The notes under the pieces were generated by a model. It saw nothing but the letters and a program-made list of their open reading frames with translations. It ran no database searches and was not told where the DNA came from. DNA of 64,000 nucleotides, from contig JBAZUU010000001.1 in assembly GCA_041661275.1 (NCBI GenBank), positions 101,057 through 165,056 of the forward strand. The letters run 5' to 3'. Below are positions 46,130-47,929 of the stretch, one piece after another; positions within the stretch are counted from its first letter, which is position 1, and every line of letters begins with the position of its first letter. This DNA comes from Parcubacteria group bacterium. GTDB lineage: Bacteria; Patescibacteriota; Minisyncoccia; Moranbacterales; UBA2206. The translations under genes and the position numbers were made by a program.

Positions 46130-47929
46130 CTACAAGAATTCCTTTAATCTTCCGCGTCTTTCAGGATGCCGCAAAAGGCGCAACGCTTTTGATTCCACCT
46201 GTCTAATATATTCCCGGGTTTTATTGAGTTTAGCGCCAACTTCCTCCAGGGTCATCTCTGGATGGCCAAACAAACCAAAACGCATCACAATTACCCGTTG
46301 TCGCCTGATACTAAGCTTCGCAAGGCATGCTCTGAAAGCTTCACTCAATTCATCATTGATGATTTTAGATTCCAGTTCCTTTTCCGGATCATTTTCTCCT
46401 GGCTGGGCTTCAATCTCTTGACGAGAAACTACTTCGTGTCTTTGATAGAACAAATAATCCCCCATTACATCCTGCATAAATTGGTAGTAATGGTCGGAAT
46501 CTCCCCTCCACATTCCCACCTGCCTGAAGTACCGCCGCATAAGCGTCATTCCAGTTAAGGTAAACTTGGGGTGATCGAAACGCATATTTTGAAATTCGTA
46601 AAATGGTATCTCGCCAAAATCAATATCTTCCCGGGAAAGCAAGATTGCCTTGACGAATTCCGGATCAGTAAAATCGTCTCGTTCGGGCTTTAATCGTTTA
46701 ATATCGACCACCGATCTAGTCTCGTAAGAAACCCTGATATCTTTTATGACAGCGACATCAATTCCTCTTCCAAGCTGAACGTCTTCCTGTTCCATCTGCC
46801 GCTTGGAAGCGACAACCAGCCCGCCCTGCCGATATTTCCGATTTCCAAAGATATGATGGACTAATATCGGCTGGTCGGCCGAACGAAAAACATCTTGGAA
46901 TTCGACGACAATTCCGGAGGTTTTGCCTTCATGCGGCGCTACTGCCCGACAAGCTCTTTGCTCGGCAACCACCCAGGAATACGTTGGCCGTAGATTCAGG
47001 GTAACCGTAACCCGCTCAGAGTCCCAACCCTCAATAAGAATGTCTCGAGAGCAAAGCACATCGATCCATCCTTTATTGAAAGCATTAATTATGCGATCCC
47101 TTTCCCTATCAGGCGTGCCAGAATGGATAGCGTACGCTTTAATTCCCGCTTTTCGATAATACCTAGCGAGCTCGATCGTGTGGTTGATACTGACACAAAA
47201 AGCAACAGCTGGAATACCTCGGAAATTCTTCAGATAGAAATCCCGAGAAACTTTATTTCTGGCGGCGATATTAAGCGCCTTTTCAGCTACTTCTTCATCA
47301 AGCACGCCCTTGCGAGTCATCCTGACTTTGCGAAGGTCAATGTCAGTCTCCACGACATACCCGCGTAGCGGCAAAAGGATTCCGTCTTCAATTGCCTCCT
47401 GTAAGGTCATACGATAAATCTCGTTTCGGAAAACTTTTTCGACGTTTTTTTGTTCACTGAATTTATCTGTCGCCGTGAAAGCGATGCAGATTGCGTTCAG
47501 ATAATCAGGAATCTTCGAACGCATAAGAGACAATGAGCGATGACCCTCGTCAAGAATCACCAGCCGGACAAAATCTTTAGGGATCAGCCTCTTTTTAATA
47601 AGGAGTACCAGTGAATGATATGTCGTATAAACAATGTCCCCAGTAAGATCCTTTTTCCCTTTGTGATAGACCGTAATGTTGGCATCAGGATCATGCTTGC
47701 GCATCTTTTTTACGTTTTGATCCATAATGAGATGCGTCGGGGAAACGATCAAAATCTTTTTCAAAAAGCCTCGCATCAGCTTGGCCACTTCGGAAAAAAC
47801 AATCGTTTTGCCTGATTTTGAGGGCATGACAACGAAACCTCGAATGTCTTTTTTCTTCTGATTCTCATCAATAAAGTCGAGAATCGCATCATAGACCGAA
47901 CCCTGATATTGCCGCAATTTAAAGCTCAT
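46130..47929 (-). CDS. SF2 DEAH-type helicase (ResIII-like N-domain plus helicase C-domain) fused to a C-terminal sigma-70 region-4 HTH
   Basis: Walker A [8 protein letters not shown], DEGH box VILDEGHRS, helicase C-region. C-terminal [63 protein letters not shown] is a textbook sigma-70 region 4.2. 599 aa. Confidence 0.7.
   Translation of the reverse strand: [599 protein letters not shown]

Follow-up and report, generated by a model that had tools for sequence, protein, structure and literature searches.

A helicase joined to a complete primary-sigma region 4 in a Parcubacteria group bacterium: a possible sigma-tethered DNA motor

The gene considered here lies in a stretch of 64,000 nucleotides (the window) of contig JBAZUU010000001.1, from a Parcubacteria group bacterium (GenBank assembly GCA_041661275.1), and it encodes a protein of 599 amino acids (aa) in which a superfamily 2 (SF2) helicase motor is joined to a piece of the bacterial transcription machinery. 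It occupies positions 46130..47929 of the minus strand, begins with ATG and closes with a stop codon at 46130-46132. At its C-terminus the protein carries region 4 of a primary (group 1) sigma, complete and autonomous. The interpretation that we favour, and hold tentatively, is that this region 4 might be an address tag which brings a double-stranded DNA (dsDNA) translocase to DNA of the -35 type and/or to the beta-flap of RNA polymerase. No account of a helicase-sigma fusion turned up in full-text literature searches, in keeping with the suggestion of the first-pass annotation of this DNA that the architecture was undescribed; that suggestion holds for the literature searched but not for the databases, where the architecture is already present, labelled automatically as "DEAD/DEAH box helicase family protein" or as "RNA polymerase sigma factor (sigma-70 family)". 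Nor is the fusion categorically new, since two such kinds are already known: SF2 remodellers associated with RNA polymerase, and SF2 motors that carry an accessory domain for DNA binding or targeting.

The sigma-derived module and the motor

The C-terminal module (aa 515-599, 46133..46387 on the minus strand) is assigned to sigma region 4 by Pfam, NCBIfam and PDB sequence matches in agreement with each other. Pfam Sigma70_r4 (PF04545) matches aa 535-588 with an E value of 1.8e-13 and a score of 50.2 bits against a gathering score of 24.1, in NCBIfam the C-terminal ends of RpoD models match aa 514-599, and the PDB sequence matches to aa 524-599 are without exception region 4 of group 1 (primary) sigmas; the matches of the module also include region 4 of many other sigmas. 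In profile comparisons, aa 515-599 align end to end with residues 285-369 of Bacillus subtilis SigA (E 5e-24). With the RpoD encoded in the window itself (22010..23332, minus strand), only aa 521-598 align, to RpoD residues 363-440, at a probability of 98.6%. By these profile comparisons, sigma homology can be demonstrated for no more of the protein than about aa 515-599. The first-pass annotation had read a DEAH-box helicase and a sigma region 4 from the letters alone, in a minus-strand open reading frame (ORF) of 599 aa; the ORF list reproduces that frame exactly, with its Walker A motif and DEGH box, and the database matches bear out both domains. Reassignment of the C-terminus to a LuxR/GerE-type helix-turn-helix (HTH) found no footing in Pfam, where no GerE or LuxR family appears even at E<=1.

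An AlphaFold2 (AF2) model, built from an alignment of 49 sequences, has a mean predicted local distance difference test score (pLDDT) of 90.1 and a predicted template modelling score (pTM) of 0.69. It presents aa 515-596 as the five helices of sigma region 4, including the four-helix fold that characterizes the region, with the recognition helix of the HTH (aa 572-586, 46172-46216 on the minus strand) following the helices of region 4.1 and with a C-terminal helix at aa 589-596. That pTM, despite the high pLDDT, suggests that the C-terminal module of the modelled protein is flexibly tethered.

Residues were mapped on the E. coli sigma-70 sequence, whose numbering equals that of the fusion protein plus 12; the mapping agrees with HMMER alignments to PDB chains. 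The residues that contact bases of the -35 element (E. coli R584, E585, R588 and Q589) are kept as R572, E573, R576 and Q577, and those of the flap-contacting C-terminal helix (E. coli L607, F610 and L611) as L595, F598 and L599. In sigma factors, positions -31 and -33 of the -35 hexamer are read by R584 and E585, a readout on which R588 has an influence (PMC2613000), and the contacts of region 4 are with the -35 element and with the flap-tip helix (PMC6755090). Judged by residue identity, the module of the fusion protein could serve in both roles of region 4, as a reader of -35 DNA and as a docking surface for the beta-flap.

The last 85 aa of the protein align with the whole of region 4 of RpoD/SigA, the -35 readers and the C-terminal helix included, but unlike those sigmas it has no region 1.1, 2 or 3. 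Pfam gives no match to Sigma70_r2 or Sigma70_r3 anywhere in the protein, and the general sigma model TIGR02937 reaches 39.8 bits, under its cut-off of 42.9. Sigma region 2 (PF04542) provides core binding as well as recognition and melting of the -10 element. Without regions 2 and 3 the protein cannot act as a sigma factor, and, with region 1.1 missing as well, it can neither form a holoenzyme nor melt a -10 element.

A comparison of the tail with the RpoD of the window indicates an old fusion. The two are 38% identical across 84 aa, and the likeness of their DNA is limited to the codons of the HTH; the fusion is therefore old, and a recent copy of the 3' end of the host rpoD was rejected, with neither the protein identity nor any extended DNA identity to speak for it. 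The C-terminal end of the window RpoD reads as the first-pass annotation had quoted it. At the N-terminus of that host RpoD is a tail of ~70 aa rich in lysine, and its C-terminal end is non-canonical when set against LRKLRHPSRS..L..FL, so that the region 4 tail of the fusion protein looks more textbook primary-sigma-like than that of the host's own RpoD.

The remainder of the protein is an ATP-driven SF2 motor of the ResIII/COG1061 ("SSL2") type, followed by a family-specific middle domain. RecA-like motor domain 1 (aa 1-200, 47330..47929, minus strand; Pfam ResIII at aa 3-154, E 5e-19; AF2 pLDDT >90) contains the Q-motif residue Q9, the Walker A motif MPSKSGKT (aa 35-42, 47804-47827, minus strand), the DEGH box (aa 127-130, 47540-47551, minus strand) and motif III, TAT (aa 152-154). 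RecA-like motor domain 2 (aa 201-348, 46886..47329, minus strand; Pfam Helicase_C at aa 237-329, E 3e-13) contributes motif V, LIEGWD, and motif VI, QRACR, with an invariant R328. The motor thus displays motifs Q, I (GKT), II (DExH), III (TAT), V and VI (QRxxR) of the SF2 class with ResIII and Helicase_C domains. Q9, G40, K41, T42, D127, E128, H130, A153, T154 and the motif VI arginine are invariant in an alignment of 23 family members, and because of this invariance of the catalytic motifs the ATPase is predicted, and expected, to be active.

By its fold the motor is closest to dsDNA translocases, with comparison figures of 26.4 for the Type I restriction subunit HsdR, 23.9 for RadD, 23.5 for the Type IV enzyme SauUSI, 22.4 for Ino80, 22.0 for CSB, 21.1 for XPB and 19.8 for Mfd. 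Foldseek comparison with viral models returned phage "SSL2/COG1061" helicases, with the overlap limited to the motor. The middle domain (aa 349-505, 46415..46885, minus strand), delimited by the secondary structure of the AF2 model and by conserved columns, consists of a small beta/alpha sub-domain with a conserved HHLFGxRxYRQGG motif and then a helical sub-domain. The first-pass annotation had asked whether the middle of the protein carries a known domain, and none emerged for aa 349-505 from Pfam or from PDB sequences (the latter compared with the A5 profile); PHROG_16 ("DNA helicase") matches aa 1-527. An acidic linker of low model confidence (aa 506-514, 46388..46414, minus strand; pLDDT <50 at aa 509-511) separates the middle domain from region 4.

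The family and the wider helicase clade

A homologue search that covered 5.8 billion proteins returned ~25 homologues with 36-52% identity, near-full coverage and the same Pfam architecture. Among 1.84 billion cluster representatives searched with a profile, only ~11 clusters match through region 4, and a pattern scan of 185,579 species genomes, which used a single motif and may miss some members, found 4 loci, all of them in Patescibacteria. The fusion is rare, and was found in Patescibacteria and, for two members of a sister clade of longer proteins (A2) next to the bacterial clade A1 that includes this protein, on contigs of archaeal character. The fold core of region 4 and its basic surface are conserved in the family.

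Several members of the family show individual features. P0021, a member of clade A2, retains RKLRHPSRSKRL, a bacterial sigma domain in an archaeal setting. P0024, of the same clade, is without the first ~117 positions of the helicase profile (L016 8001-10181), and directly upstream of it lies an ORF of 220 aa (L016 7125-7787) with a faint LAGLIDADG match; another relative, P0050, has intein/homing-endonuclease domains within it, and the helicase genes of this clade may have been invaded by inteins or homing endonucleases. In P0011, P0012 and P0013, the HTH of region 4.2 is set apart from region 4.1 by an insertion of ~50 aa. P0009 (L007 / L012) occurs in GCA_964384645.1 (contig CAYLKL010000004.1) and in GCA_017998295.1 under labels that differ, "Saprospiraceae bacterium" at NCBI as opposed to "uncultured Candidatus Saccharibacteria" in the CAYLKL record; the gene content of the contig is Patescibacteria-like, and the Saprospiraceae label is probably a binning error.

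The motor itself belongs to a much larger group. A profile search found 4,897 related helicases at E<=1e-30, many of them with an N-terminal extension of ~100 aa and many aligning to the family profile only to about position 420. Among the C-terminal regions of 47 of these wider relatives there is an assortment of HTH domains, including five matches to Sigma70_r4 and two to Sigma70_r2. Sigma modules in the retrieved proteins were probed with the window RpoD and then confirmed by Pfam. Three of the proteins carry an entire sigma: in P0109 (1051 aa) and P0180 (1087 aa) the helicase is followed by a complete C-terminal sigma with regions 2-4 (Pfam Sigma70_r2 and Sigma70_r4), and in P0148 (1166 aa) a sigma with regions 2-4 (Pfam Sigma70_r2) precedes the helicase. 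The gene for P0180 (locus L009 8001-11264) stands on a contig of 1.1 Mb among resolvase, TraG/DUF87, Mrr, FtsK and LexA-like/Pol IV-type genes.

A second clade, B (the P0091 group: P0091, P0127, P0171, P0173, P0175, P0183, P0188, P0193 and P0147), is composed of helicases of 760-1100 aa with a very canonical primary-sigma region 4; most of them have it at about aa 650-790, P0147 at about aa 917-999. P0091 (locus L010 8001-10472), from a metagenome-assembled genome of Curtissbacteria, is named a sigma factor by NCBI though it has no region 2. In both clade A and clade B the copies of region 4 have the character of a primary sigma, with the tail LRKLRHPSRSK-L as well. On a neighbour-joining tree of the motor, the sigma-bearing proteins fall at no fewer than six separate positions (clade A, which is the family of the fusion protein, clade B, P0041, P0196, P0028/P0083 and the full-sigma proteins P0109/P0180/P0148). 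The link of this motor clade with sigma modules is either recurrent or long maintained.

The gene and its surroundings

The fusion gene looks, from its sequence signals, like a self-contained unit with a ribosome-binding site of its own and terminators on either side. The ribosome-binding site, AGGAG, is at 47935..47939 on the minus strand, 6 nucleotides (nt) before the ATG, and directly after the stop codon a hairpin resembling an intrinsic terminator (46092..46120, minus strand), with a stem of 13 bp and then a run of T, was found by the terminator scan and in the sequence; the terminator hairpin of polA on the upstream side was located by the same scan, so that hairpins flank the gene on both sides. 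A consensus scan also picked out a promoter-like site, TTGACA-17 nt-(TG)AATAAT, at 47985..48013 of the minus strand, ~55 nt upstream of the ATG, with a near-consensus extended -10 and 11/12 matches; the region holds as many promoter-like sites as would be expected by chance, and this one is a consensus match only. Its TTGACA is perfect, and autoregulation would be possible if the fusion protein binds TTGACA.

The neighbours of the gene in the window are a gene for a B12-binding radical SAM protein, a gene for a TrmB-family regulator and polA, and the gene sits between polA and, two genes further on, fpg. The radical SAM and TrmB genes are present as the first-pass annotation had pointed out, but they are uninformative on function because they are not conserved next to the homologues. 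Elsewhere in the window, at 54466-57501 on the plus strand, a protein of 1011 aa has two tandem matches to T2SSE (the PilB/GspE-type secretion ATPase) totalling 720 bits, an unusual duplicated architecture.

Possible roles of the sigma-tethered motor

Under the reading that we tentatively favour, region 4 would place the motor at DNA of the -35 type and/or at the beta-flap of a polymerase that carries no sigma. The translocase, once anchored, would pull on the flanking duplex at the expense of ATP hydrolysis, and the pulling might remodel or clear transcription complexes or other proteins bound at promoters, with the resident sigma as a competitor. That the fusion protein is targeted to promoters or mimics sigma is inferred, and the proposed logic would parallel that of the SF2 motors RapA and Mfd, which are associated with RNA polymerase. 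RapA (HepA), an SF2 ATPase of the Swi2/Snf2 group, binds the core enzyme of RNA polymerase and not the holoenzyme; its site overlaps that of sigma, and on the beta flap-tip helix it touches the hydrophobic patch that sigma region 4 also uses (PMC8501970). By analogy, the fusion protein and RapA might both be examples of a translocase stationed at the site of sigma region 4. Unlike the fusion protein, RapA has no sigma-derived domain and docks by way of its ATPase lobes and N-terminal domain. Nor is the fusion protein a member of the RapA/Swi2-Snf2 group by its scores, with SNF2-rel_dom at 20.1 bits (cut-off 24.9); SWI2_SNF2 (PF18766) does reach 40 bits against 26.7, in a match that overlaps the ResIII match.

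A number of observations weigh against such a role. To begin with, binding of -35 DNA or of the flap by the module is a prediction from its residues. The full quartet of -35 readout residues is found in 7 of the 18 members of clade A1 and in 6 of the 10 in clade B, and in none of the 8 in clade A2, and among the closest relatives of the protein (P0002-P0007) the motif TRERIRQ is replaced by TDTRAQQ, RPPQ, TPNNIRI or TGNRIRD; -35 readout is not a family-wide constraint. The two members of clade A2 that were looked up are on contigs with archaeal hallmark genes, a PolD small subunit and a tRNA-splicing endonuclease in the case of P0024 (L016) and a proteasome subunit and an aCPSF1-like KH/beta-CASP gene in that of P0021 (L017), and for this clade the reading meets the difficulty that we know of no sigma/beta-flap system in Archaea. 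Across nine gene contexts of the family no conserved neighbour was found that might provide a link to transcription, the gene being a solo gene among housekeeping genes. In the wider clade the C-terminal position is also filled by HTH_29, HTH_28, HTH_23, MarR_2 and Crp domains, and region 4 may be one of several interchangeable DNA-binding modules. The neighbour-joining tree, finally, is crude, and a single old fusion followed by many losses is an alternative to repeated acquisition.

Much of this evidence could be accommodated by the principal rival explanation, which we regard as possible but on the doubtful side. It states that region 4 is a generic HTH accessory domain, derived from a sigma factor but without any link to promoters or polymerase, which serves as a DNA grip or pin on a helicase of repair, recombination or replication. 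The assortment of C-terminal HTH domains across the wider clade, the degenerate -35 readers of most close relatives and of all of clade A2, and the archaeal contigs of its two looked-up members all speak for such a domain. The best full-length matches of the motor, moreover, are RadD-like repair helicases and helicases of phage replication modules, and the gene of the window lies between polA and fpg. The match to RadD (YejH) is limited to the motor, and at 81.6 bits in NCBIfam (NF053632) it is far from the equivalog cut-off of 720, and the polA/fpg surroundings are not conserved beside the homologues. Two further considerations speak against a generic domain. A sigma module has been captured in several lineages, with three relatives that possess a whole sigma including region 2, and the primary-sigma tail (RHPSRS..L..F/Y) and the flap-contacting helix have been kept even where the base-reading residues have drifted, P0003, P0005 and P0007 being examples. 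Most of P0002-P0007 still carry the primary-sigma tail in the form KALRKLRHPSRS..L.

It is unlikely, in our estimation, that the fusion gene has an accessory role in anti-phage defence or on a mobile element, in which an HTH-guided translocase would operate in the manner of the motors of type I/IV restriction systems or of the sigma-like MzaA. The notion draws on PADLOC matches to mREase_IV (4e-19) and to the C-terminus of MzaA (6e-13), on the structural resemblance to HsdR and SauUSI, which are restriction motors, on the very patchy spread (4/185,579 species genomes), on the conjugative-element-like context of the full-sigma protein P0180 and on an IS200-type transposase gene that adjoins P0010. 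Its weakness is that the matches span either the motor alone or region 4 alone and fall far under the family cut-offs. Like the fusion protein, MzaA of the MZA anti-phage system is large and ends in a region 4 that resembles that of a primary sigma (NCBIfam positions 634-714/726, 5.5e-22), but the match is confined to the C-terminal 85 aa, at 78.4 bits against a cut-off of 800, and no MZA partner genes are near the fusion gene; a literature search on MzaA returned unrelated papers only. The resemblance to HsdR and SauUSI is likewise limited to the motor, with no nuclease, methylase or other effector domain detected in the fusion protein and no hsdM/hsdS-like neighbours. There are no conserved partner genes in the housekeeping surroundings, and the fusion is absent from the phages of INPHARED and BFVD. 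An origin from a prophage or phage was itself rejected, the phage helicases being 21-28% identical and none of them possessing a region 4, and the PHROG_16 match being limited to the motor and middle domain.

Improbable, too, is a role as a competitor of sigma or an anti-sigma-like factor, in which region 4 would occupy beta-flap or -35 sites and repress transcription by the primary sigma, with the ATPase acting as a switch and not as a motor. The completeness of the region 4, its primary-sigma type, a tail more canonical than that of the host RpoD and the perfect TTGACA in the promoter-like site of the gene itself would be consistent with competition of this kind. The base-reading residues, though, are poorly conserved in the family, and the invariance of all the helicase motifs, the arginine finger included, together with the translocase fold argues for real motor activity. 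The chance that the fusion is an artefact, in which a frameshift or mis-assembly has run a helicase gene into part of a sigma gene, is negligible, and we reject it, as the ORF is continuous and has its own ribosome-binding site and terminator, the identical protein (P0001) is found both on an ENA contig of 299.6 kb and on a Logan contig with different sample accessions, ~25 diverged homologues share the architecture, and a tail merely 38% identical to the window RpoD is no recent copy.

The presence of an intact region 4 on an ATP-driven dsDNA translocase suggests an undescribed coupling of a DNA motor to bacterial transcription, and the case for such coupling is made stronger by the relatives that bear whole sigmas and by the association of motor and sigma module in several lineages. 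For those members that have region 4 alone, the name "sigma-70 family sigma factor", which JGI and NCBI give to some of the proteins, is wrong, and the other name given by annotation pipelines is that of a plain helicase. A bolder proposal, to which we attach only a slim chance, is that this helicase clade of ultra-small bacteria and some archaea might constitute an unrecognized class of sigma-tethered ATP motors, delivered with the holoenzyme through a whole sigma (P0109, P0180 and P0148) or docked at the -35 element or beta-flap through region 4 alone, in which ATP would drive promoter opening, escape or the recycling of polymerase. Initiation of the sigma-70 type needs no ATP, and motors of this kind, if they exist, would be an exception to that rule and would correspond in bacteria to the XPB translocase of TFIIH. 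The fusion protein is not itself an XPB/Ssl2 (COG1061) protein by the NCBIfam XPB model, which it matches at aa 2-109 only with 26.9 bits against a cut-off of 610, and with a sigma domain as the tether bacteria would have a different solution of their own. Should the motor act on promoters or polymerase, it would represent a third design of SF2 remodeller associated with RNA polymerase, in addition to RapA and Mfd, and it might reveal how stalled or idle polymerase is handled in episymbionts with reduced genomes.

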